Positions 189 through 29,035 of a stretch of 64,000 bases of DNA are shown one piece after another. The first letter of the stretch is position 1, and each line of letters opens with the position of its first letter. The notes below the pieces were generated by a model. The model was not told the DNA's origin. It saw nothing but the letters and a program-made list of their open reading frames with translations, and did no database searches. The position numbers were made by a program, and so were the translations under genes. The stretch is from positions 171,330 to 235,329 of the forward strand of contig JAECRG010000001.1 of the NCBI GenBank assembly GCA_015999875.1, read 5' to 3'. Source of the stretch: Candidatus Saccharimonadota bacterium. GTDB lineage: Bacteria; Patescibacteriota; Saccharimonadia; Saccharimonadales; Saccharimonadaceae.

Positions 189-554
189 ATGAGCAATATT
201 CGAGAGATACCCACGGCGCTTACAAGAGAACATAATCTCCAGAGCGCATATAACGCAAAGATTGAGGATATATTTTCAACATTCAATGCCCGCTACCCAG
301 ACTATCAATCCCAAGCAGAAATCGTACGTGACAATATACTCTTCAACCTTGCTGACTACGTCAATGAATTCTCGGTAGAAGAAATTGAAGAAATCGCGCA
401 GACTGCATTAAACCAAGTGCTCGAAGGTAACCAACCGGAGCACAACGACAGCATTGAATCCTTTGCAAGCGATCACTCCACAGACAAAAGCGTTGAACTT
501 GGAAAAATTGCAGCGTCCGAGTCAACCAAAAATGTCATACCCCTATTTAGATAG
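189..554 (+). CDS. hypothetical acidic protein (121 aa)
   Basis: Intact ORF directly downstream of a canonical promoter. I recognised no motif. Confidence 0.5.
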   Translation: MSNIREIPTALTREHNLQSAYNAKIEDIFSTFNARYPDYQSQAEIVRDNILFNLADYVNEFSVEEIEEIAQTALNQVLEGNQPEHNDSIESFASDHSTDKSVELGKIAASESTKNVIPLFR

Positions 555-1163: not shown

Positions 1164-1204
1164 AGTATATAGAAAAACTAGCACTCGCGTCAATAGAGTG
1201 CTAG
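1164..1204 (-). promoter_or_regulatory. clpP promoter with embedded CIRCE-like inverted repeat
   Basis: CTAGCACTC-N9-GAGTGCTAG lies at 1178-1204 (perfect 9-bp arms). On the minus strand the spacer reads TATTGACGC, giving -35 TTGACG (1193-1188), an 18-nt spacer and -10 TATACT (1169-1164). Six nt later is ATG 1157. Confidence 0.7.
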
Positions 1205-1224
1205 TTTGATAGGTGCATTGTACT

Positions 1225-1248
1225 ACAACTCTCGGGCTCCTAGAGTGT
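1225..1248 (+). repeat. hairpin element copy 1 (ACAACTCTCGGGCTCctaGAGTGT)
   Basis: The 15-nt core ACAACTCTCGGGCTC and the GAGTGT arm recur inverted at 1750-1771. The element can form a 6-bp stem with one bulge. Confidence 0.7.
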
Positions 1249-1261
1249 CATAGTACTTCGG

Positions 1262-1465
1262 TCAACCGAGGCTGCCACCGCCAGGTAGCTTGTCGGTAAA
1301 TCTCGAAAAAGACAACACCGACCGGCGACCAGTGGGTGGTTCCTTGCGAAGTAGTTGCGACTTCTCGCTACGCATCACACGATCGCCAAACACTTCATAG
1401 GCGAACTGATGCGCCGTCGCCAGCACAAGCTTCAAAGATGTTTTGACGCGATCTAAAGCATTCAT
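1262..1465 (-). CDS. small hypothetical protein (67 aa), cassette 1
   Basis: AGGAGG lies 6 nt upstream of ATG 1465. The C-terminus SVLSFSRFTDKLPGGG is paralogous to AVLSGFAEKLPKGG of ORF 1871..2260. Confidence 0.4.
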   Translation of the reverse strand: MNALDRVKTSLKLVLATAHQFAYEVFGDRVMRSEKSQLLRKEPPTGRRSVLSFSRFTDKLPGGGSLG

Positions 1466-1604
1466 CTGCTTCCTCCTGTGCTATCGAAAAGAGCTTGGCC
1501 TGATGACCTGCGAGAGTCTTTGCGACTGTGACCCAGATCACATCGACGTAGTAATATATAGGTAATTCCTCCGGCCACAGTAAACCACAATGTAAATCTT
1601 CCAT
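1395..1604 (-). CDS. possible small ORF (69 aa), cassette 1; overlaps 1262..1465 by 71 nt in another frame
   Basis: Open frame only. The SD is weak and distant. The IYYYVDVIWVTV...GHQ stretch only vaguely resembles RelE/ParE C-terminal strands. It may be a remnant. Confidence 0.15.
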   Translation of the reverse strand: MEDLHCGLLWPEELPIYYYVDVIWVTVAKTLAGHQAKLFSIAQEEADECFRSRQNIFEACAGDGASVRL

Positions 1605-1701
1605 ACAAATCCAAGGTTCAGCCTCTTTTCGTCTTAGTATCTTCTGTCACGTCCTACACAGCCAAGCGCAGGGCATGGGGTGCAAGAGAATGGTCATACA
1701 C

Positions 1702-1719
1702 AAAAAACCGCCAATGGCG
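1702..1719 (-). terminator. weak hairpin plus T6 tract (minus strand)
   Basis: The minus strand reads CGCCATTGGCGGTTTTTTG. The stem is only 4 GC pairs, so this is a borderline terminator or attenuator. Confidence 0.3.
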
Positions 1720-1749
1720 ATTACGATCTTCCTCACATCTCCTTAATGT

Positions 1750-1771
1750 ACACTCCGAGCCCGAGAGTTGT
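1750..1771 (-). repeat. hairpin element copy 2 (inverted copy of 1225-1248)
   Basis: The plus strand reads ACACTCcGAGCCCGAGAGTTGT. Its reverse complement shares 15/15 nt plus the 6-nt arm with copy 1. Confidence 0.7.
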
Positions 1772-1777
1772 GTGATT

Positions 1778-1786
1778 ACTATAACA
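1778..1786 (-). promoter_or_regulatory. extended -10 (TGTTATAGT) reading into hairpin copy 2
   Basis: The minus strand reads TGTTATAGT. The predicted TSS is near 1771, the outer edge of hairpin copy 2. Confidence 0.35.
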
Positions 1787-1794
1787 GATTTACA

Positions 1795-1823
1795 GAGAAA
1801 TAAAATAGCCCTCAAGCGAGGGT
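1795..1823 (-). terminator. rho-independent terminator after ORF 1871..2260
   Basis: The minus strand reads ACCCTCGCTTGAGGGCTATTTTATTTCTC: a GC stem CCCTC/GAGGG followed by a T-rich tail. Confidence 0.6.
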
Positions 1824-1839
1824 ATTTCATAATTTCAGG

Positions 1840-1870
1840 GATTGTAGCTCTCGGCTCAGTGAGTACAATC
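1840..1870 (+). repeat. hairpin element copy 3 (GATTGTAgCTCtcggctcagtGAGTACAATC)
   Basis: A 10-bp stem with one bulge abuts the stop codon at 1871. It shares the 12-mer GCTCTCGGCTCA with the inverted copy at 2282-2293. Confidence 0.7.
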
Positions 1871-2260
1871 CTAACTTCCAAACACAGACCCACACAGGAA
1901 ATAGTTCGCCGTGTCACCCGTAGAGATAGATCTAGCCAGATCTAACTGATCCCTCTCTTCTTGTAGTTCAAGCACGTATCGTGCCTGAAGTCGCTGGATA
2001 CCTGAAAATGGGTTTGGCCAGGTTACGGGAGGCAGCCCCGAACCGCGGCTCACGCCACTCAGGGTTGCCGCTCCTGCAGCGATAGCCACACCTGCTGCCG
2101 CACTTGCTGCGGCAATATACTTGCGTTGCATGCTCATACCACCTTTCGGTAATTTTTCGGCAAACCCGCTCAATACTGCTGCGCATTCACCCGCACTCGC
2201 TAATTCGTCTACGCAAATTGCCACACCACCCTGCATATAGGGTCGCAGGCATGGTGCCAT
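1871..2260 (-). CDS. small hypothetical protein with central Ala/Gly-rich hydrophobic segment (129 aa; alternative start 2137 gives 88 aa), cassette 2
   Basis: AGAGGA lies 8 nt upstream of ATG 2260, and AAAGGTGG lies upstream of ATG 2137. The N-terminal AVLSGFAEKLPKGG is paralogous to the end of ORF 1262..1465, which supports the longer form. Confidence 0.45.
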   Translation of the reverse strand: MAPCLRPYMQGGVAICVDELASAGECAAVLSGFAEKLPKGGMSMQRKYIAAASAAAGVAIAAGAATLSGVSRGSGLPPVTWPNPFSGIQRLQARYVLELQEERDQLDLARSISTGDTANYFLCGSVFGS

Positions 2261-2269
2261 ACTTCAGTC

Positions 2270-2295
2270 CTCTCTCAATCTTGAGCCGAGAGCAC
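2270..2295 (-). repeat. hairpin element copy 4 (inverted copy of 1840-1870 core)
   Basis: CTCTC (2272-2276) pairs with GAGAG (2288-2292). In the minus-strand RNA the 3' arm GAGAG is part of the SD (GAGAGAGGA) of ORF 1871..2260. Confidence 0.65.
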
Positions 2296-2310
2296 GCTAT
2301 AACTATACAA

Positions 2311-3594
2311 TTATTTACTATTTAATTCAACGAGTTTGTCAATAGTTTTGTCAGTCAGAAGACGATTTGCGATATCACGCTGTGCTTCCGGAGACTTGAG
2401 TTGTTTGCGCAAATCATCTGACGGATACTGCTGCCCCAGCAGATTCATGCGCTCAAGCAGCTCTTCTTGTGTCGCTTCCACCTTGAGAACTTTGCTCAGT
2501 TCAGCAAGCACGAGACCTGCTCGCACGCGATTATCTGCAGCATCTTTAACTTCGCTCGCAATCCATGCATCTTTGTCTTTGAAGTCTTTTTCTGCGAGGT
2601 ACATGTCAAGCGTAAGTCCGCGTTGCATGAGATTCTGCACCATATCTTGCTCGATAGAACGCATTTGATCTTGCGCCAAGATTTCCGGCACAGGCACTTC
2701 GCTCTTCTCTACAAGCTCTGATACAAGTGCATCTTTAAGCTTGTCATCTGCTTCTTGTTGCTTTTGACGAGTAATCTCTGTTTTGATGTCATCTTCAAGC
2801 TCCTTGACTGTCTTGAATGGACCAGCTTTTGCAGCAAGCTCATCGGTCAATTCTGGCTCTACAACCTCTTTGACCTCGTTAAGCTTCACAGAGAAAACAA
2901 CCTTTGCTCCCTTGAGATCTTCTACATGGTAGTGATCCGGAAATGCAAGATCTAGATCAAACTCATCACCCGCCTTGTGACCAATAATACCGTCTTCAAA
3001 GCCTGGGATAAAGCTATCGCTACCAAGTACGATATCATAGCCTTCTGCTGTACCGCCGTCAAACGCAACACCGTCTTTTTTACCGACGAAGTTGATGTTT
3101 ACCTCATCGCCCTTCTTAGCTTTGCGCTCAGCTGGCTTTTTCTCTGCGTATCCTTTTTTGATACGATCAAGGATTTCATCGACGTCTTTTTTAGTGACGC
3201 TCACTTTTTCTGCTTTTGCGCTAAGCTTCTTGTAATCACCGAGGGTGATTTTTGGCAAAATCTCTGCTATAGCGACAAACTCGAGTTCGCTACCAGGCAC
3301 GAATTTCTTTACGTCAACTTCTGGACGATCAAGTGCCTGTACGCCAGATTCTGTAAATGCGTCAGCGACCGCTTTGCTCAGTGCGTTCTCAAGCGTGTGC
3401 TGGGCAAGGTCATTTGGATCAACATGTTTTGCCGCAACGCTCGCAGGCGCCTTACCCTTGCGGAAGCCGGGGACCTTAATATCCTGTGCAACTTTAGCAA
3501 GCGCTACTAGCTCGGCGTTTTTGAGCTCTTCGGCACCAACTGTAATTGTAAGTTCAACTTTTGTCTCTGATAAATGTTTCGTGGATTGTTTCAT
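2311..3594 (-). CDS. tig: trigger factor
   Basis: 427 aa. The N-terminal ribosome-binding signature GFRKGKAP and a central FKBP-like region are present. It sits in the classic position upstream of clpP. Confidence 0.95.
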   Translation of the reverse strand: MKQSTKHLSETKVELTITVGAEELKNAELVALAKVAQDIKVPGFRKGKAPASVAAKHVDPNDLAQHTLENALSKAVADAFTESGVQALDRPEVDVKKFVPGSELEFVAIAEILPKITLGDYKKLSAKAEKVSVTKKDVDEILDRIKKGYAEKKPAERKAKKGDEVNINFVGKKDGVAFDGGTAEGYDIVLGSDSFIPGFEDGIIGHKAGDEFDLDLAFPDHYHVEDLKGAKVVFSVKLNEVKEVVEPELTDELAAKAGPFKTVKELEDDIKTEITRQKQQEADDKLKDALVSELVEKSEVPVPEILAQDQMRSIEQDMVQNLMQRGLTLDMYLAEKDFKDKDAWIASEVKDAADNRVRAGLVLAELSKVLKVEATQEELLERMNLLGQQYPSDDLRKQLKSPEAQRDIANRLLTDKTIDKLVELNSK

Positions 3595-3603
3595 ACTGTT
3601 ACC

Positions 3604-3609
3604 AGTATA
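3604..3609 (-). promoter_or_regulatory. -10 box TATACT, 9 nt upstream of tig ATG
   Basis: The minus strand reads TTCACA-N16-TATACT-GGTAACAGT-ATG. Confidence 0.4.
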
Positions 3610-3655
3610 TCAGCTTCCACCACCGTGTGAAAACGTAAGTAGTTACCAGAAAAAT

Positions 3656-5179
3656 CTAGCTGACATATCCATAGCCAGATTTTTTGACATTATATGCCCG
3701 ATGGCTACGCTTCCGCAGGCTTAGTGTGTCCTCTGCGTCAAACTTACGCGTAGCAACCCCTCGTGAACTATCCGTCACGACTTGCGTCATATTAATCTCC
3801 ACACCCAGCGCTACACACGCGTAGATATCAAGCACTTTGTCGTGCAGCACAGGGTCTTGACTAGCTTCCACGTTCACATATTTCGCTGCAAAACCTGTAA
3901 TCCGAGAGAACACTTCTGTAATATTCTCATCCGTATCTTTGAGAATTTCTTGCGGATAAGCACCCGGGGGCAAAGCACTGTTTTCTAAATGAGTCAGCAT
4001 GTTCGCCAGTTTCACTACAGATGCCCTCTTTATCGAGAGGTCTCCATAGCGAGATTGACCCCCTCCATCCTGAGTTAATGCATCGCGCAACTTGCGCGCA
4101 TTCGCATTATTTGCACCCTCTGAGTCGGCAAGCATTTCCATGGTATTTGCGAATAGTTGCGTCAGACCATCGATCGCCTGTGCACTGTCGCGCTTTCGAG
4201 ACCCAGGGGCGTCTGCTTCATGCTCACGCACCATTTCGGCATATACACGCAGCCCTCTGTAATAAGACCCTGGAAGATCTGCCGAGGAATTCACAAAATA
4301 CTTTGCAATATTATCTACAGTCGGCTCAGGAAGTGCAGCCTTGTGGTCATACATATTCATCCTTGACCTAAAATATGCAAAATCATCACATGTTTCACGC
4401 GTAAATTCACCGCCGAGCTGATAGATTCCAAAATCACCTAAATTCACCTTGTGGCTTACCCGTGTACCGTACATAATCTTCTTTACTGTCTCAGAGGCGC
4501 CAACCTCACCGTTATTTATCCCGACCCACAGTGCGGCTGCTGCATCTATATCTTCAGCGCTGTTATCCGCACATCGTAGCACAGATTCTGCCACTAAGCC
4601 TGCTATATAGGCCCTATCTTTCATATCAGATGATTCTGCCAGTCCATACTCGTCCAGTTCGGATAATACCGCGACGCGATGCCAGGCATCCATCTCTTCC
4701 TGCGTTCGTGCAGATTTCAGACCCTGTACGAAAAATCTATTTGGAGCAGACTGATCTACAGCTTCTTGTGCAGTGGCAATACGCGCCGTCAACCCCTCGC
4801 GCGTCTTTTGGTACTCACTCCAGTAGTCGTTGACGTCTCCGCCAGTTCTCCATAGCGGCTGCTGCGAGTTATCATACCCACTTTTCTTTAGCCATGTGCC
4901 ATACCCCATACTCTCGAATTCCGATAGATTACTCTGTGCAATATCAAGATCTCGCGGCAACATTCGCATTGCCTCACGCTGAGCCTCACTATCCATATGC
5001 TCACCTACCAACGCCCCTAGCACCTGTTCATCGGTCGCATCAACTGATAAATTACAGATACGCGCAAATGCATGCGCAATGGCAGGCTCTATGTCATCCA
5101 TCTCATTCAAAGATTCTTTGCTTGCCTTGCGATACTGATCACTACTGTGTCTCGGCTCTTGCGTATTTTTCATTTTCAT
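3656..5179 (-). CDS. hypothetical protein (507 aa), no recognisable domain, no signal peptide or TM
   Basis: Long intact ORF with its own canonical promoter. I recognised no catalytic motif. Confidence 0.7.
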   Translation of the reverse strand: MKMKNTQEPRHSSDQYRKASKESLNEMDDIEPAIAHAFARICNLSVDATDEQVLGALVGEHMDSEAQREAMRMLPRDLDIAQSNLSEFESMGYGTWLKKSGYDNSQQPLWRTGGDVNDYWSEYQKTREGLTARIATAQEAVDQSAPNRFFVQGLKSARTQEEMDAWHRVAVLSELDEYGLAESSDMKDRAYIAGLVAESVLRCADNSAEDIDAAAALWVGINNGEVGASETVKKIMYGTRVSHKVNLGDFGIYQLGGEFTRETCDDFAYFRSRMNMYDHKAALPEPTVDNIAKYFVNSSADLPGSYYRGLRVYAEMVREHEADAPGSRKRDSAQAIDGLTQLFANTMEMLADSEGANNANARKLRDALTQDGGGQSRYGDLSIKRASVVKLANMLTHLENSALPPGAYPQEILKDTDENITEVFSRITGFAAKYVNVEASQDPVLHDKVLDIYACVALGVEINMTQVVTDSSRGVATRKFDAEDTLSLRKRSHRAYNVKKSGYGYVS

Positions 5180-5241: not shown

Positions 5242-6588
5242 TTACTCTACAAATAGTGCATCAATTTCATCAAGTATGCCGCGATTACGATAGTCTTTGA
5301 CGCGTGTCACTATACGCTCAAGACTAAGCTTTTCTTCTGATTCCGAGGCGACATCCTTGAAGGTGTAGAGTTCGTTTTTGAGCTCTTCGTCGCCGACAAA
5401 CACCATAAATGGCACATGTTTTTTGAGCACGGCTTTGATCTGCTTATCGATCTTGCGACCAGATATGTCTACCTCCACGTTCACACCTTCTTCGCGTAGA
5501 CGGCGCGCAAACACCAATGCGCCATCGACATTATCATCGCCGGGCACGACCACACAGATATCCGTAGTTGAGACAAGCTCCGGCAAAAGCTTGTGTGATT
5601 CGAGAAATAGTAACATAGGAGTGAGGCCAGGTGCCATGCCAACTGTCGGCACAGGCTCTACACCGAACAGGCCTACCAAACCGTCGTAGCGTCCGCCACC
5701 AAACATCGAGCGGTTGTTGTCAGGGTGCATATCAAATACCTCAAATACTGTACCTGTGTAGTAGTCAAGCCCCCTCATAAGAGTGATGTCGAACAGAGCG
5801 TTATTTACACCTGCTGTCTTGAGCAGAGTAAACAACTCCTGCACTTCCTGTACGGCGTCACTGTCGCGCAGTTCTTCTGGTAGATCGGCCATAGATTTAG
5901 CAGTAATCAACTTAGCGATCTTGGCACTACCCTCGCCCGCTCGCTCTTCGCCAAAGATATCTATCACCTGGTCACGAAACGCCTCAGCAGGGATTTTGTT
6001 TTTGCGATCGAACAACTTCACCATCAGATGTGATTGCACCGCATCGAGGCCTAAGTATTGACTCATCATATAATTGATAAGTTTGCGGTTGTTGATTCGT
6101 ATCGCAAACATTTCGTCGCTCGCACCAAACGCGCGTACGATCTCGTAAGCCATAGCAATAATCTCTGCTTCTGCCCGTACGCCGTCTACTCCAAAAATAT
6201 CGGTATTGAGCTGCCAGAATTCACGCTCACGACCACGTTGTGGACGCTCGTAACGCATAAAGTTAGCAATGCTATAAAGACGCGCTGGATAGCCGAGCTC
6301 TTGACGCTGCGCGGCAACCATACGGCTAATACTTGGTGTCATCTCTGGTCGTATAGCCACCACACGGTCGCCTCGATCGGTAAAAGTATATGTCTGCTCG
6401 CTTGCAAGCTCTTGACCGCTTTTGGCAGTATAAAGCTCGAGAGGCTCTAAGATAGGCGCAGCATACTCTTCATAACCGTGCTGTCGCGCTACACGGTGCC
6501 ATGTATCAAATATATAGTTACGTACCCGCATGTCTGCTGGATAGAAATCTCGTGTGCCCTTGTAGGCTTGTGTACTAAGTGAGCTCAT
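5242..6588 (-). CDS. hisS: histidine--tRNA ligase
   Basis: Motifs seen: KGTRDFYP, FRYERPQRGREREFWQ and GGGRYD. The ORF extends to 6606. The start is set at the second Met (MSSLSTQAYKG, 6588); 6606 remains possible. Confidence 0.9.
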   Translation of the reverse strand: MSSLSTQAYKGTRDFYPADMRVRNYIFDTWHRVARQHGYEEYAAPILEPLELYTAKSGQELASEQTYTFTDRGDRVVAIRPEMTPSISRMVAAQRQELGYPARLYSIANFMRYERPQRGREREFWQLNTDIFGVDGVRAEAEIIAMAYEIVRAFGASDEMFAIRINNRKLINYMMSQYLGLDAVQSHLMVKLFDRKNKIPAEAFRDQVIDIFGEERAGEGSAKIAKLITAKSMADLPEELRDSDAVQEVQELFTLLKTAGVNNALFDITLMRGLDYYTGTVFEVFDMHPDNNRSMFGGGRYDGLVGLFGVEPVPTVGMAPGLTPMLLFLESHKLLPELVSTTDICVVVPGDDNVDGALVFARRLREEGVNVEVDISGRKIDKQIKAVLKKHVPFMVFVGDEELKNELYTFKDVASESEEKLSLERIVTRVKDYRNRGILDEIDALFVE

Positions 6589-25457: not shown

Positions 25458-26465
25458 TCAGATGCTCGGCGCAGGCGCCAAACTGCTGTCGAGCGAACGT
25501 GAAAGACTATTCGACTCATCAACTGTTTGATTATAGGCCTGACGCTTCACCTCATAATCGGCAACTTTCGTGTCGATAGTACTGCGCGTCTGTGTTAACA
25601 CCCCCACTCGGCCCTCAAGAGCAGCCCGAGCTGCCTGAAACGTAGACTGATCAGAGAAACCACCATTTTGCGCACGGACGTTAAAGGTCTCTATGTCATC
25701 ATTGAGCACGGCTATCTCACTATTGTATTGACTAGTCATTGTATTAATCTCACTTGATAGTTGCTCGAGTTGAGATTTGAGAGTTGTAGAACTTCTCTCT
25801 AGTTCGTCAAATTTCGAGCTATAAGAATCATGTAGCGCTACGATTGCTTGTCGACCTGTAAAATACTGGGAATAGTACTCCTCGAGTTCATCTCCAATAC
25901 TACTCACCTCAGTGCCGATAATGGAATGTAGCTCATTATCTCTCTCCCCAGGTTCTGTACGTGCGTAGTACTCCATACGTTCTTTTAGATCATTGTCTTC
26001 CGAACGGAGAAGTTTTTGATACTCAACATCGATTAAGCTATTAAGGTGGTTTTTTTCCGACGAAGATAAACGAACATACACCGCATGGAGCATTTCGTGC
26101 GCCGCAGTCACCTCCTCTACGCCATTGAGTCGTTTATCCGATATGTTGTATACAAAAATCTTGCCGTTTGTGAAGCATCCGAGTATCGCGCTGTTTTCTT
26201 CTTGACGCTTACACACCTCATTGAACTTAGCCGTACCGTCAAGCTGTGGCTCAGATGCATAGAAATAAAAAGTCCCCTTATCATTCATCTGCGCGCGTTC
26301 GGCCAGTTGTGCCACTTCTGACGAAGGTTGGTATTGCCACACAACTAGTTGATCGACCACATACTGACGATTGAGCACTACCCAGCCTGCAACCAAAAAC
26401 AGCAATACTGTCAGTAGCGAGCTGACAATTACGGCTGTCTTGCTATTACCGGGGGACGCTCTCAT
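25458..26465 (-). CDS. membrane-anchored protein with HExxH motif and coiled-coil C-terminal half
   Basis: The N-terminal TM is AVIVSSLLTVLLFLVAGWVVL. AAHEMLHAVY provides the HExxH. A heptad-rich C-terminus follows. It overlaps the clpC stop by 20 nt. Confidence 0.6.
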   Translation of the reverse strand: MRASPGNSKTAVIVSSLLTVLLFLVAGWVVLNRQYVVDQLVVWQYQPSSEVAQLAERAQMNDKGTFYFYASEPQLDGTAKFNEVCKRQEENSAILGCFTNGKIFVYNISDKRLNGVEEVTAAHEMLHAVYVRLSSSEKNHLNSLIDVEYQKLLRSEDNDLKERMEYYARTEPGERDNELHSIIGTEVSSIGDELEEYYSQYFTGRQAIVALHDSYSSKFDELERSSTTLKSQLEQLSSEINTMTSQYNSEIAVLNDDIETFNVRAQNGGFSDQSTFQAARAALEGRVGVLTQTRSTIDTKVADYEVKRQAYNQTVDESNSLSRSLDSSLAPAPSI

Positions 26466-28923
26466 AGCTACCCACCACAGTGACCTTTCCTTGCTTGATA
26501 CCGGCCGTCACCACAACACCTTTTTCATACGCGCCGCTAATTACCCCCTCGGCAATTTCATGCTCCAGCTCATCTTCTATCACCCTTCGAAGCGGGCGTG
26601 CGCCGTTAAACCTATCGTAACCATGGTCAATAAGCAATCGTTTTGCAGCTGGCTTCACGACAAGTGCCACGCCTTTTTTCACCAATCGTTGCTTGAGTTC
26701 ATCGATCAGTCGGTCAAAGATTTTTGATACTTCTTTGCGGGTCAGTGCACGGAACGTGATAATTCCATCAAACCTATTAATTAGCTCGGGCCTCATAAAG
26801 TTCTCCAGAGCTTCTTTTGCCGAGGCTGCATTGCGTGCATGCACAGCATCAAGCTCTTTCTCATCCTTTTTAGTGTGTACACCAAATCCTAGGTTTGCCT
26901 CTTTACGCATCGCCTCGGCGCCGAGATTACTCGTCAAGATAATCACCGTATTCGTAAAGTCCACTGTACGTCCAGATGCATCAGTTAATTTTCCATCCTC
27001 GAGTAATTGCAGGAGCATATGGAACACGGTCGGATGTGCTTTTTCTATCTCATCAAAAAGCACCACGCTATAAGGTTGACGACGGATCTTGTCCGTTAGT
27101 TGACCGCCGTCTTCATACCCTACGTAGCCTGCTGGCGCGCCAAGTAGCCGAGAGGTGTTATGCTTTTCTGCAAATTCGCTCATATCGATTTTGATTAATG
27201 CGTCGTCGCTACCGAATACTTCACGAGCTATCACTCGTGCTAGCTCGGTCTTACCGACACCAGTTGGACCCATAAATACGAAAGAACCAATCGGGCGCTT
27301 GCTCGAACCAACACCACTACGACTACGGCGCACGGCACGCGCAACCTTATTCACGGCCTCTTCTTGGCCAATCACGTGTTTCGCGAGATGCTTTTCGAGA
27401 TGTGACAATATTCGAGCTTCGTTTTTCTGCACTCGAGTCGCCGGGATACCGGTCATAACAGATACCGCGTGCGCGACGTTATCACTCGTCAGCTTAATAG
27501 GTGACTTTCTCTCAGCCTCTTCGCTGAGCTCCTTAACCTGGAGCTGGAGCTGACTGATGCGAGTCTTGTAAAGTGCCGCACGCTCATATTCCTCACTCAC
27601 TACCGCATCTTCCATCTTCTCGTTCAGCTGCTTCAGTTCACGAGTGTAGTCACGAATTTTGCTTGGCTTTTTGCCATGTTTTACTCGCACTAGCGCTGCT
27701 GCTTCATCGATCACATCAATAGCCTTATCTGGCATGAAGCGGTTTTTAATATAGCGATCAGCCATATGCACCGCGTCTTCTACTACTTCGTCACTCATAC
27801 TTACCCCGTGATGCTTTTCGTAGTACGGACGTAAACCTTTAACAATAGCTGTTGTGTCTCGCAAGCTTGGCTCGGGCACATTAATGGATTGAAAGCGACG
27901 CTCGAGTGCGCTGTCTTTTTCAATATGCTTGCGATATTCGTCTAATGTAGTTGCACCGATCAGACGCATTTCACCACGAGCTAAGGCGGGCTTGAGCAAG
28001 TTAGCCGCGTCAAGTGCACCTTCGGCTGCTCCTGCACCTACAAGCAGATGCAGCTCGTCGATAAACGCGATGGTATTCTGCTGCTCCTTGAGGGTAGCCA
28101 CGACTTTTTTGAGACGGTCTTCGAACTCACCGCGGTATTTGGTGCCTGCGATCATAGCGGCGAGATCAAGCTGTACGATACGCTTATCGAGCAGATGGTC
28201 AGGTACGTCTTCATTTGAAATTCGCTGCGCCAAACCCTCCACGATTGCCGTCTTACCAACGCCAGGCTCACCTATCAGCACAGGGTTGTTTTTGGTACGA
28301 CGACTCAAAATCGTCACCATACGCTCCACTTGCGCATCACGACCTATCACTGGATCCAGCTCATTTGATCGTGCTTTGGCGGTAAGATCTACACCAAAAG
28401 TATCGAGAATGCTTGTTTTACGCTTAGGTTTTTCAGTTTCTATGATAATTTCTTGCGCCTCGAGGTTGTTTTGACGAGCAAAAAACGACTCAAGATCACC
28501 ACCCACGGCATCGATGTCGACGCCCATATCAGCCAGCAGGACCGTGGCGCGTGCATTTCGCTGATTGAGGATACTGTAGAGAATATGCTCAGTACCAAGA
28601 GAATCTTGGTTGTAATCTTGTGCAACTTGCCAGCTCATACGAAGGGTCACTTTGGCAGTTTCGCTGAGGGAGTTCACCCCTATGTGTACAGCTTGCGTGA
28701 CAGGTTTCAAGCCAAGCGCAACTTCTGCTTTATCAAGCGTAACACCCGCATCGGCAAGCACCTTTGCTCCTACGCTTGAACCTTGAGCAAGGACACCGAG
28801 CAACAAATGCTCCGTCCCGATAAACTTACTACCATATCCGCGCGCAATAGAATCCGCATGGTACAAACTTGTCCGCGCGTTATCCGTCAAATGAGCGACA
28901 AACTCTGCAAATTCATCAGACAT
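26446..28923 (-). CDS. clpC: ATP-dependent Clp protease ATP-binding subunit ClpC
   Basis: Two Clp_N repeats, Walker A motifs GEPGVGKT and GPTGVGKT, and a UVR-like linker are present. 825 aa. Confidence 0.95.
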
Positions 28924-28994: not shown

Positions 28995-29035
28995 AGTATA
29001 CACGGCTTTTGGCACTCGAGTCAAGTGAGTGCCAA
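28995..29035 (-). promoter_or_regulatory. clpC promoter with embedded CIRCE-like inverted repeat
   Basis: TTGGCACTC-N9-GAGTGCCAA lies at 29009-29035. The minus-strand spacer ACTTGACTC gives -35 TTGACT (29024-29019), an 18-nt spacer and -10 TATACT (29000-28995). A 71-nt leader carrying GGAGG follows. Confidence 0.7.

Follow-up and report, generated by a model that had tools for sequence, protein, structure and literature searches.

Small-protein cassettes between tig and clpP in a Saccharibacteria clade carry matched, co-varying end elements that point to pairing between mRNA ends

The window, i.e., the whole stretch of 64,000 nt that was analysed, belongs to a Saccharibacteria genome near Ca. 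Mycosynbacter amalyticus. Its relevant neighbourhood includes a SpoU methylase gene, hisS, tig, clpP, a VIT1 gene, and rpoB. According to the gene calls, tig occupies 2311-3594 on the minus strand and the ATG of clpP lies at 1157, which agrees with the gene ends and the 1.15-kb spacer given in an earlier note on this DNA. The same note's statement that the spacer contains no conventional gene proved too strong, since its ORFs have homologues under purifying selection. The spacer consists of two cassettes, A on the tig side and B on the clpP side, both on the minus strand, with the following features.

2302-2330, minus strand: cassette A promoter, with a -35-like TTGAAT (2330-2325) inside the end of tig and a -10 TATAGT (2307-2302); 9 of 12 matches in the scan.
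2282-2293, minus strand: cassette A 5' arm GCUCUCGGCUCA, predicted 5' end of the transcript and perfect 12-nt complement of 1847-1858.
2268-2291, minus strand: cassette A leader hairpin, CUCUC (2291-2287) with GAGAG over the first-ORF SD GAGAGAGGA (2276-2268), predicted in the isolated leader.
1871-2260, minus strand: 129-aa ORF, the first of cassette A.
1840-1870, minus strand: cassette A 3' hairpin, outer stem GAUUGUA/UACAAUC (-12.3 kcal/mol), with the 3' arm UGAGCCGAGAGC (1847-1858) in the loop and 3' half.
1795-1823, minus strand: cassette A intrinsic terminator, CCCUCGCUUGAGGG plus a U-run (terminator scan and RNA fold).
1778-1786, minus strand: cassette B promoter, extended -10 TGTTATAGT, which aligns with the invariant cassette -10.
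1750-1771, minus strand: cassette B 5' element, arm ACAACUCUCGGGCUC (1771-1757) with its own hairpin; perfect 15-nt complement of 1225-1239.
1647-1736, minus strand: possible 29-aa hydrophobic GTG ORF with an AAGGA SD, candidate first ORF of cassette B.
1462-1614, minus strand: 50-aa ORF with a TTG start; its stop overlaps the start of the 67-aa ORF by ATGA.
1262-1465, minus strand: 67-aa ORF, the last gene of cassette B.
1225-1248, minus strand: cassette B 3' element, arm GAGCCCGAGAGUUGU at 1239-1225.
1175-1207, no strand assigned: CIRCE-like palindrome CTAGCACTC-N9-GAGTGCTAG plus a T-run, overlapping the clpP promoter.
1193-1188 and 1169-1164: clpP promoter, TTGACG and TATACT, respectively (promoter scan).

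The four hairpin elements that the earlier note had arranged in the order -> <- -> <- lie where it placed them and exceed the chance level. The inverted repeat 1225-1246/1750-1771 is 22 nt long and 86% complementary with a perfect 15-nt core (ACAACTCTCGGGCTC), the repeat 1847-1858/2282-2293 is a perfect one of 12 nt (GCTCTCGGCTCA), and a core motif is common to both pairs. The longest perfect inverted repeat in the spacer has 15 nt vs a maximum of 13 nt among 500 dinucleotide-preserving shuffles, of which 9 contain inverted repeats of at least 12 nt. RNA folding also confirms the CUCUC/GAGAG hairpin that had been proposed over the SD of the 129-aa ORF. As for cassette B, the extended -10 suggested at 1786-1778 holds up and matches the -10 of all cassettes (profile match window 1786-1743, E = 0.001), and the 5' hairpin has no SD inside. 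The terminator scan recovers the proposed terminator, at 1822-1809, as well as the weaker hairpin with a T-run, the latter at 1722-1706, inside the possible 29-aa ORF.

Both small ORFs reported earlier, 1262-1465 (67 aa) and 1871-2260 (129 aa), are present on the minus strand; the list was, however, probably incomplete for cassette B, which probably has further minus-strand ORFs (the 50-aa one and possibly the 29-aa one). The 129-aa product has homologues of 85-111 aa, which start at its internal Met (MQRKY, residue 44), so that the conserved gene spans ~1871-2131/2137 and its product is a single-pass membrane protein of 86-88 aa from the 'LPP' family; the first 41-43 codons of the ORF are an in-frame extension at the N-terminus that is specific to the lineage. 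Among billions of proteins, 8 to 11 belong to this family, and the word-based search with the 129-aa product returned a single match, a 99%-identical protein. For the 86-aa protein AlphaFold2 gives a weak model (pLDDT 62, pTM 0.27) with helices at 3-29 and 41-71.

In cassette B, no homologue of the possible 29-aa GTG ORF was found. The 50-aa ORF is the positional counterpart of a 57-aa ORF in Mycosynbacter, both having the ATGA overlap with the next ORF, and the N-terminus of the 67-aa product is similar to the 43-aa ORF in cassette 2 of Mycosynbacter (39% across 31 aa; E = 0.002, obtained with a small database). The C-terminal GGSLG of the 67-aa product, directly before the stop, is shared with final ORFs of other cassettes. 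The majority of cassettes are operons with 2-7 genes, some of which encode soluble proteins under purifying selection. Many cassettes of relatives open with a TM peptide of 27-38 aa, and first ORFs often encode peptides of 27-33 aa that have an N-terminus rich in Lys, a TM segment, and a charged tail. Judged by dN/dS values of 0.09-0.24 in 9 homologous small-ORF pairs, the cassette ORFs are real lineage-restricted genes under purifying selection, with synonymous sites near saturation (dS 0.8-2.6). The cassette protein families have no Pfam, NCBIfam, PHROG, or PADLOC match, and the cassettes show neither sequence similarity to a known toxin nor an Rfam match.

The two window cassettes had also been taken for diverged duplicates, which is not established: the similarity is marginal (7 of 12 residues alike between the 67-aa and 129-aa products, E = 0.01 for this single comparison), and closer counterparts exist elsewhere. 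Cassettes A and B contain different gene families, each being closer to cassettes of other genomes than to the other, and their paralogy is only marginally indicated. The codons of the shared motif in the 129-aa ORF overlie the SD preceding the internal start, and in relatives the SD of the following ORF is provided by comparable codons for a C-terminal PPGG (CCAGGAGG). An embedded SD explains the recurrent 'PPGG/LPxGG' peptide motif better than protein paralogy does.

The comparison set comprises 18 cassettes from 12 loci. A comparison of tig-clpP spacers across relatives, which the earlier note had proposed as a check, reveals 0, 1, or 2 cassettes per spacer and spacer lengths from 60 to 1150 nt within the clade. 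In some close relatives the site is empty (60-66 nt), and others have one or two cassettes; empty sites are observed at tig identities of 84%, 83%, 77%, and 75%, and filled ones at 74-94%. Ca. Mycosynbacter amalyticus has the same two-cassette layout as the window. Cassette number and gene content are mosaic among relatives, and all cassettes found share a single locus and a single orientation.

All 18 cassettes follow one plan: a TAnnnT -10, whose T, A, and T are invariant (18/18), located 6-9 nt upstream of a CTCTCGGCTC-like 5' arm; a local hairpin between this arm and the first SD; tightly packed small ORFs; a 3' hairpin with the complementary arm in its loop; and, as the 3' border, a terminator or the CIRCE-like clpP operator. 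Leader hairpins equivalent to that of cassette A are found in nearly all of them. This supports the earlier view of the hairpins as conserved structured elements, which are tied to promoter, SD, and terminator across cassettes. The CIRCE-like palindrome is the fixed right border of the insertion site and occurs in all clade relatives, empty sites included; a second CIRCE-like copy lies upstream of a ClpB/ClpC-like gene. The CIRCE consensus is an inverted repeat, TTAGCACTC-N9-GAGTGCTAA. An inverted repeat upstream of a heat-shock gene, as in a CIRCE/HrcA operator, is represented here by the border element at 1175-1207, not by the cassettes.

According to pattern and profile-HMM searches of ~230 kb (the 64-kb window and 166 kb of relatives), the elements are confined to tig-clpP spacers. 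Extra CTCTCGGCTC copies in loci L001 and L003 lie inside the hisS coding sequence and are thus chance matches. The metagenome scan with the pattern CTCTCGGCYYNAGAGAG yielded, among the 129 matches listed, one true cassette (L120, with the sequence of L004), and in viral contigs the same pattern gave 9 chance matches, none with a partner arm. The dispersed copies typical of REP/BIME elements are absent from the 64-kb window of the ~0.67-Mb genome and from the 166 kb of relatives, and no RAYT (TnpA-REP)-like transposase appears in the gene calls or Pfam matches of the flanks. The description of the spacer as an accessory cassette-like small-protein module stands, given the 0, 1, or 2 cassettes in relatives, and the 'REP-like' part of it is not supported, the elements being restricted to tig-clpP spacers in the ~230 kb searched. 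A literature search on the tig-clpP cassette locus found nothing.

The arms of each cassette co-vary. In alignment A4, the nine core pairs show 0 unpaired among 162 cells, 85% of cells are paired vs 31-43% when the partner is slid by 1-3 columns, two-sided changes occur in 12 of 15 pairs, and the observed covariation score is reached by 0 of 500 shuffles, all of these statistics being inflated because the sequences are related and the structure was derived from the same sequences. One-sided core changes (5 cells, ~4 independent events) all give G.U or U.G on the tig-sense strand, and the same G.U cells would read as A.C mismatches on the opposite strand. Variant arm pairs include GGGCUC/GAGCCC in window cassette B, CUCCUGG/CCAGGAG in L005, GGUCA/UGACC and CCUCGGCCC/GGGCCGAGG in L145, and CCUCCGGUA/UACCGGAGG in L141. 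The contiguous helix measures 12.0 bp with the own partner vs 8.9 bp with others (permutation p < 5e-5), and in two-cassette loci own pairs reach 10-15 bp vs 5.5-10 bp for cross pairs. The element pairs thus behave as matched co-varying partners, which points to pairing between the mRNA ends of each cassette; matched inverted repeats could also stay matched through a process at the DNA level.

As for RNA folding, the probability of the long-distance helix is at least 0.86 in 13 of 18 whole-cassette folds and below 0.7 in the other 5 (cassette A, 0.96 in a 475-nt RNA; cassette B, 0.99). For the 502-nt RNA of cassette A, which has a z-score of -4.1, both the MFE and the centroid structure contain the helix. 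In full-length RNAs the SD window is ~60% paired, mostly with the segment just 5' of the 3' arm, and in isolated leaders the SD pairs with the 5' arm. A simple ON switch, in which the 3' arm frees the SD, is not supported: the unpaired fraction of the SD changes little, being 0.40 in full-length RNAs vs 0.31 without the 3' arm, and in full-length RNAs the SD tends to pair with the 3' element. The outer stem of the 3' hairpin varies in sequence and persists in 17 of 18 cassettes. These hairpins were folded singly; RNAalifold gave no structure on the alignment because stem offsets vary in it. They fold alike on both strands (summed -237 vs -240 kcal/mol) and are therefore uninformative with respect to strand.

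Taken jointly, these results make two statements probable: the tig-clpP spacer of the Ca. Mycosynbacter clade is a fast-turnover island of lineage-specific small-protein genes, organized as one or two autonomous cassettes, and each cassette is a transcription unit whose mRNA is closed by a helix between its distant 5' and 3' ends, in the manner of hok and aapA mRNAs. Covariation supports the helix itself; its formation in vivo, the transcript ends, and the effects on stability and translation we infer, with transcript starts and ends placed by consensus motifs alone. The -10 box would set the start at, or a few bases from, the 5' arm CUCUCGG(G)CUC, and the 3' arm would lie in the loop of a hairpin that directly precedes the terminator or the CIRCE hairpin. 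While the RNA is being made, the 5' arm would serve as an anti-SD and form a local hairpin with the SD of the first ORF. After synthesis of the 3' element, it would pair with the 3' arm instead, giving a long-distance helix of 10-15 bp, predicted to extend over the SD in about half of the cassettes. In the closed panhandle, the 5' end would be buried, ~10-45 nt from the 3' end, and the first ribosome-binding site largely occluded. The likely result is a stable, poorly translated full-length mRNA resembling the hok and aapA type I toxin mRNAs.

This explanation overlaps with an unlikely one that goes further, namely a true type I toxin-antitoxin locus, with the first peptides as membrane toxins, the helix as a fold-back lock, and an unrecognised antisense RNA as the antitoxin. 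The minimal cassette of L004 (172 nt arm to arm, one 29-31-aa TM peptide) and cassette 2 of L141 (246 nt, two TM peptides of 29 and 31 aa) speak for it, as do the often short first ORFs coding for TM peptides with a Lys-rich N-terminus and a charged tail. An SD-sequestering anti-SD with a 5'-3' interaction is indicated by the CUCUC/GAGAG hairpin, the covariation, and the predicted helix probability, and the RNA features of the cassettes are those used as descriptors in T1TAdb (PMC8594479). Against it, window cassette A opens with the 129-aa ORF instead of a short toxin. As for a hydrophobic toxin ORF of less than ~60 aa, TM peptides of 27-38 aa open many cassettes of relatives, and window cassette B opens with the candidate 29-aa GTG ORF. 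No conserved antisense -10, as expected for an antisense RNA antitoxin, was seen beside the 5' or 3' elements; a reverse-strand TAnnnT near the 3' hairpins is found in just ~6 of 15 cassettes, at variable distance. Most cassettes are, moreover, multi-gene (2-7) and encode soluble proteins under purifying selection, no Rfam match supports a known family, and toxicity of the peptides is hypothetical.

A mobile or invertible DNA cassette (MITE-, integron-, or invertase-like) is another reading, with the arms as its terminal inverted repeats or recombination sites, kept matched by copying of the ends or by recognition; we regard it as improbable. Filled and empty sites among close relatives, the mosaic of cassette number and gene content, and the inverted repeats bracketing each cassette agree with such an element. 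Every cassette, however, sits at one locus in one orientation, target-site duplications were not detected, and the gene calls and Pfam listings of the flanks contain no recombinase, transposase, or integrase. Further, arms differ between cassettes, which is unexpected if one enzyme reads the sites, they keep a fixed relation to -10, SD, and terminator, and interruptions of the core helix are all sense-strand G.U. The specific identities of this kind fail as well. An integron array would have IntI and attI beside it, and no integrase occurs among the tig-clpP neighbours; the 3' stems (GGTTGCA...TGCAACC, GGTTACA...TGTAACC, and GATTGTA...TACAATC) read GTT...AAC on either strand rather than the attC order RYYYAAC...GTTRRRY. 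As in MITEs, the arms are inverted, but the borders show no direct duplications, the DNA between the arms encodes proteins under selection, and the element occupies one locus in the ~230 kb searched. Integron, MITE, and REP identities are therefore rejected on integrase, attC, duplications, and dispersal.

An RNase III processing stalk or insulator likewise has a low probability. It would involve readthrough from tig and cutting of the arm duplex, which frees the cassette RNA from the tig and clpP messages, as in rRNA-precursor stalks and the intervening sequences of 23S rRNA. The promoter and terminator scan and reading of the sequence found no terminator separating the cassette from the tig stop, in some cassettes the 5' and 3' elements are reverse complements over nearly their full length (15 + 6 bp in window B), and in the MFE structure the panhandle of cassette A is longer than its 12-bp core. 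In most cassettes, however, the core helix is just 10-15 bp, which is short for a classical RNase III substrate, and the invariant adjacent -10 suggests that the 5' arm is a primary 5' end, not a processing site. As for functionless repeats left by duplication or recombination between cassette borders, with hairpins as mere terminators, the start-like right border of cassette B (TTGTAGTACAAT) and the T-rich runs after several 3' hairpins would fit, but complementarity kept over at least 5 arm variants with 0 mismatches in 162 core cells at 74-94% tig identity, a divergence over which synonymous sites of the ORFs approach saturation (dS 0.8-2.6), makes this relic very improbable.

Saccharibacteria, which live as ultra-small obligate epibionts, have streamlined genomes. 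An island that evolves fast, encodes orphan small membrane proteins, and is kept at one hotspot in a proteostasis locus is a candidate for a role in host interaction or self-control, and one invisible to homology searches. To our knowledge, almost nothing is known about RNA-based regulation in the phylum of Saccharibacteria, and the matched 5'-3' arms would offer a clean, covariation-supported long-range mRNA structure. Only tentatively, as a possibility that we would not rate as likely, the cassettes may form a new class of self-addressed CPR mRNA modules, in which each small-protein operon has an arm pair of its own, different from its neighbour's, that locks the message and gates the synthesis of small membrane proteins; these may be toxins or serve an obligate epibiont in its interaction with the host. 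Fold-back control of the hok/aapA kind would then be seen for the first time beyond the phyla with known type I systems, extended to multi-gene, horizontally shuffled cassettes at one tig-clpP hotspot. Ca. Mycosynbacter amalyticus, which is described as culturable with Gordonia amarae in PMC11880426, has the same two-cassette layout, so the model of mRNAs closed end to end is directly testable.

Among known systems, integron attC cassettes resemble the present ones in that short ORFs, mostly orphans, are arrayed at a fixed site with a single orientation and a varying composition, an imperfect palindrome ending each unit. In contrast to them, the tig-clpP cassettes have no integrase, attI, or attC cores, possess their own promoter, and carry two complementary arms vs one attC. 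REP/BIME elements and MITEs share with them the short intergenic palindromes in inverted pairs; the elements described here, however, are non-dispersed in the ~230 kb searched, enclose expressed-looking genes, and lack target duplications. In rRNA processing stalks and 23S rRNA intervening sequences, the flanks also pair over a long distance and the stem encloses an insert, whereas the stems here are short (10-15 bp), with a predicted primary 5' end as their starting point and protein-coding RNA inside.

Pairing of the 5' and 3' ends within an mRNA is best known so far from bacterial toxin mRNAs. In type I toxin mRNAs, local anti-SD hairpins occur together with a long-distance interaction of the 5' and 3' ends (PMC6733600; PMC8594479), and the T1TAdb descriptors comprise an SD/anti-SD hairpin, a 5' stem-loop, a 3' stem-loop, and the 5'-3' interaction (PMC8594479). 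Like hok/Sok and aapA/IsoA, whose toxin mRNAs have metastable anti-SD hairpins and a 5'-3' interaction of the tac-fbi fold-back type, the cassettes would produce a short mRNA for small, often hydrophobic, peptides, with an anti-SD just upstream of the SD in a local hairpin and a 5'-terminal element pairing with a 3'-terminal element by the terminator, which is predicted here to close the RNA and cover the SD. They differ from both in that an antisense antitoxin RNA was not found beside their end elements, in being mostly operons of 2-7 genes, and in their setting, a CPR/Saccharibacteria epibiont with the locus fixed between tig and clpP. Also unlike hok/Sok and aapA/IsoA, each cassette of a two-cassette locus has its own matched arm sequence.

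In the window, tig and clpP are separated by 1153 nt, and the following features are found in and around this spacer (cassette A is the small-protein cassette nearer tig, cassette B the one nearer clpP).

2311-3594, minus strand: tig (NCBIfam model match)
ATG at 1157, minus strand: clpP (NCBIfam model match)
2330-2302, minus strand: promoter-like site TTGAAT-17-TATAGT
1847-1858 / 2282-2293: inverted pair of cassette A, 12 nt, perfect (repeat search)
1822-1809, minus strand: terminator
1786-1778, minus strand: extended -10 box TGTTATAGT
1225-1246 / 1750-1771: inverted pair of cassette B, 22 nt, 86% complementarity, perfect 15-nt core (repeat search)
1722-1706, minus strand: weaker hairpin with a T-run
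Minus strand: ORFs of 67 and 129 aa, as described in the earlier note

The earlier note had reported the two inverted pairs, both ORFs, the terminator, the weaker hairpin with its T-run and the extended -10 box; since repeats, ORFs, terminator and promoter-like sites were all recovered, its observation is confirmed. The longest perfect inverted repeat of the spacer has 15 nt, compared with a maximum of 13 nt in 500 dinucleotide-preserving shuffles, 9 of which contain a repeat of at least 12 nt. Both pairs share the core CTCTCGG(G)CTC, and the 64-kb window holds no exact copy of it outside them. As for the weaker hairpin (7 bp, 1706-1722, minus strand), it lies about 50 nt 3' of the cassette B 5' hairpin, overlaps a candidate 29-aa GTG ORF (1647-1736) and could represent either the end of a ~70-nt RNA carrying the 5' arm or attenuation of the cassette.

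The tig protein assigns the window to Candidatus Saccharibacteria, with Ca. Mycosynbacter amalyticus (88% tig identity) as the nearest named relative. Among tig-clpP spacers taken from GTDB genomes and public assemblies, empty sites (L144, L154, L146-148, and L149-151, with tig identity of 84, 83, 77, and 75%, respectively) hold nothing but a CIRCE-like palindrome and the clpP promoter in their 60-66 nt. In L007, which is more distant (57% tig identity), the spacer measures 70 nt and has a terminator hairpin but not the palindrome. One cassette is present in L001, L003, L004, L005, L139/L140, and L155 (spacers of 253-1028 nt), and two tandem cassettes in the window, Mycosynbacter L142/L143, L141, L145, L152/L153, and L156 (925-1153 nt). 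Filled and empty sites alternate along the range of tig identity, and the module is therefore accessory, often gained and lost, which bears out the earlier suggestion of an accessory, cassette-like module. The adjoining hisS-tig spacer is likewise variable: the window has an orphan 507-aa ORF without a Pfam match (3656-5179, minus strand), L139 a 276-aa ORF (3104-3934), L003 about 780 nt of other sequence (5245-6000), and L001 nothing. Convergent to clpP, the window also has an orphan 121-aa ORF (189-554, plus strand), and relatives carry a 121-164-aa ORF without a Pfam match at the same position.

The CIRCE-like palindrome at clpP (CTAGCACTC-N9-GAGTGCTAG, window 1175-1207) overlaps the clpP promoter and is kept in clade relatives (tig identity of at least 74%), empty sites included. 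A second copy (TGGCACTC-N9-GAGTGCCA, 29010-29034) precedes a ClpB/ClpC-like AAA+ gene (26446-28923, minus strand) by about 90 nt, which suggests HrcA-type control of the clp genes in this lineage.

In a curated set of 18 cassettes from 12 loci, every cassette lies on the tig strand and has parts identical in kind and order: -10 box, 5' arm, local hairpin, small ORFs, 3' hairpin, and terminator or CIRCE-like hairpin. The box is placed 6-9 nt before the 5' arm, and in the leader alignment no column is invariant except T, A, and the final T of the box and GG of the arm. In the predicted local hairpin (at least 5 bp), CUCUC of the arm pairs with the GAGAG that opens the first Shine-Dalgarno sequence (SD). 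The small ORFs, 1-7 per cassette, are closely packed, and the stop codon of one often overlaps the start codon of the next; every ORF has an SD of its own. The 3' hairpin (-10 to -17 kcal/mol) has an outer stem that varies in sequence yet persists, and the complement of the 5' arm (the 3' arm) sits in its loop and 3' half. Cassettes end in an intrinsic terminator, except that the last one has the CIRCE-like hairpin with a T-run instead. Directly after the 3' hairpin, CCCUGAAAU occurs in window cassette A (1831-1839, minus strand), L003, and L005, and a variant of it in L143 cassette 1. A composite leader pattern and profile HMMs of the leader and 3' element (nhmmer --max) were run against ~230 kb of Saccharibacteria DNA, among it the complete window (~10% of its genome), and gave significant matches in tig-clpP spacers only. 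Thus, as far as searched, the elements are locus-specific, and the REP-like nature proposed in the earlier note does not hold.

The cassette proteins have no match in Pfam, NCBIfam, PHROGs, or PADLOC. They form recurring families, combined differently from cassette to cassette: short TM peptides, 'YYWLQL...GWTNFPPGG', 'YSRTHYAWLF.KWD', TM plus 'LPP', Cys-rich, and a last-gene family with a GGSLG* end. For nine homologous pairs, dN/dS is 0.09-0.24 with third-position changes in excess; these ORFs are therefore genes. The 129-aa ORF of the window falls into the TM plus 'LPP' family, for which a search of 5.8 billion clusters gave only 8 members and exhaustive HMMER scanning of 1.84 billion representatives gave 11; all members with visible gene context lie between tig and clpP. 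Its closest homologues (P0129, P0133, and P0134) start at the residue aligned to its internal Met, so the conserved gene has about 86-88 aa, the N-terminal 41-43 codons being an in-frame extension. The AlphaFold2 model (pLDDT 62) has no more than two features, a TM helix at the N-terminus and a long helix. In P0133 (111 aa) the stop codon is lost and the frame reads through the 3' hairpin (…RRIVLPEPRATIL…); therefore, the same 3' arm follows the gene in another genome.

The two window cassettes had also been taken for diverged duplicates, and here another explanation fits better. The 'KLPKGG / KLPGGG' similarity of their products covers 7/12 residues (E = 0.01), the equivalent 'PPGG' codons (CCAGGAGG) in relatives serve as SD for the ORF that follows, and in the 129-aa ORF a small hairpin (UUACC-GAAA-GGUGG) is predicted to cover the SD in front of the internal start. 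Embedded translation signals account for the motif better than cassette duplication. Cassette 2 of L143 (Ca. Mycosynbacter amalyticus CP045921.1, spacer ~812-975) has a last ORF that stops at an in-frame TGA, and the nine codons past it (DRLPGGSLG*) agree with the C-terminus of the 67-aa window protein; a recent nonsense mutation or conservation at the RNA level may lie behind this.

According to arm-arm comparisons, the longest contiguous 5'/3' helix has on average 12.0 bp with the cassette's own partner vs 8.9 bp with other cassettes (permutation p < 5e-5), and the duplex energies are -31.8 and -25.8 kcal/mol, respectively. In the alignment of concatenated arm regions, a 15-pair long-distance helix has 85% of cells paired, compared with 31-43% when the 3' partner is shifted by 1-3 columns; both-sided changes occur in 12/15 pairs, none of 500 column shuffles attains the percentage paired or the covariation score of the real alignment, and these figures come from related sequences from which the structure was itself derived. 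Among the nine core pairs (columns 8-16), 0/162 cells are unpaired. The arms vary by matched indels and substitutions (GGCUC/GAGCC, GGGCUC/GAGCCC, GGUC/GACC, GGCCC/GGGCC, GGCC/GGCC, and GGUA/UACC) in the part that forms the loop of the local hairpins, and therefore the keeping of two local hairpins cannot explain the covariation. At two-cassette loci, own arms pair over 10-15 bp vs 5.5-10 bp for cross pairs, clearly so in 4/5 loci. Read on the tig-sense strand, every one-sided core change (5 cells, ~4 independent events) is a G.U or U.G pair, and on the opposite strand it would be an A.C mismatch; given the small number, this is modest evidence for pairing in the sense RNA. In L001, L143, L145, L152, and the window (1262-1275), the final ORF ends in codons (GSLG* / RFG*) that read (C/T)TCGG(C/T)T(G/A)A. 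This sequence is similar to the 5' arm and could base-pair with the 3' arm, which follows 20-45 nt later; the likeness may be coincidental, or the sequence may act as a third competing element.

When each cassette was folded over a stretch beginning shortly before the 5' arm and ending 25 nt beyond the 3' arm, the long-distance helix had a mean pair probability of 0.80 over 18 folds and at least 0.86 in 13 of them (0.96 and 0.99 for the window's two). For the 502-nt cassette A RNA, it is present in both MFE and centroid structures (z-score -4.1 vs dinucleotide shuffles). For the first SD, pairing with the 5' arm is predicted in isolated leaders. Folds of full-length RNAs leave this SD ~60% paired, mostly with the segment directly 5' of the 3' arm, which lengthens the panhandle. 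Computed SD accessibility changes little (0.40 unpaired with the 3' arm and 0.31 without), and the helix is therefore not claimed to switch translation on. The folds are more consistent with nascent and full-length conformations both restraining the first ribosome-binding site.

The evidence best supports a reading in which each cassette is one transcription unit with predicted boundaries and the 5' end of its mRNA would be captured in the cell by the loop of its own 3'-terminal hairpin; both RNA ends would thereby be protected and the full-length message translationally restrained. A complete type I toxin-antitoxin system would be in keeping with the architecture of the mRNA and with the small TM peptides, but a conserved antisense promoter was sought and not found, and most cassettes are multi-gene. 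It is possible that the arms form an RNase III processing stalk excising the cassette from tig read-through transcripts; the stems are short, however, and the -10 box speaks for a primary 5' end. A mobile or invertible DNA element would fit the presence/absence polymorphism, but not the single locus and orientation, the variable arm sequences or the sense-strand G.U bias, and neither a recombinase nor target duplications were found. A functionless relic is hard to reconcile with 162/162 core cells paired across lineages with synonymous sites near saturation. Membership among integrons, MITEs, or REP/BIME was also considered and rejected, each failing on the defining features tested.

Compared with known systems, the cassettes are closest in kind to type I toxin mRNAs such as those of the hok and aapA families, whose local anti-SD hairpins operate while the RNA is still being made and whose full-length form is afterwards locked by a long-distance interaction between 5' and 3' ends (PMC6733600); descriptors for type I toxin mRNA features are given in PMC8594479. 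The cassettes resemble them in predicted cis-architecture and are at most candidate members of that class: they have no similarity in sequence or to Rfam families, and an antitoxin RNA, one of the defining features of type I, was sought and not found. A literature search found no paper on the tig-clpP cassette locus. The spacer described here is a real, lineage-specific hotspot of small-protein cassettes with mRNA ends matched by covariation. This wholly computational finding exceeds a hairpin curiosity: it points to a variant of a known regulatory kind that, to our knowledge, has not previously been described in this phylum.
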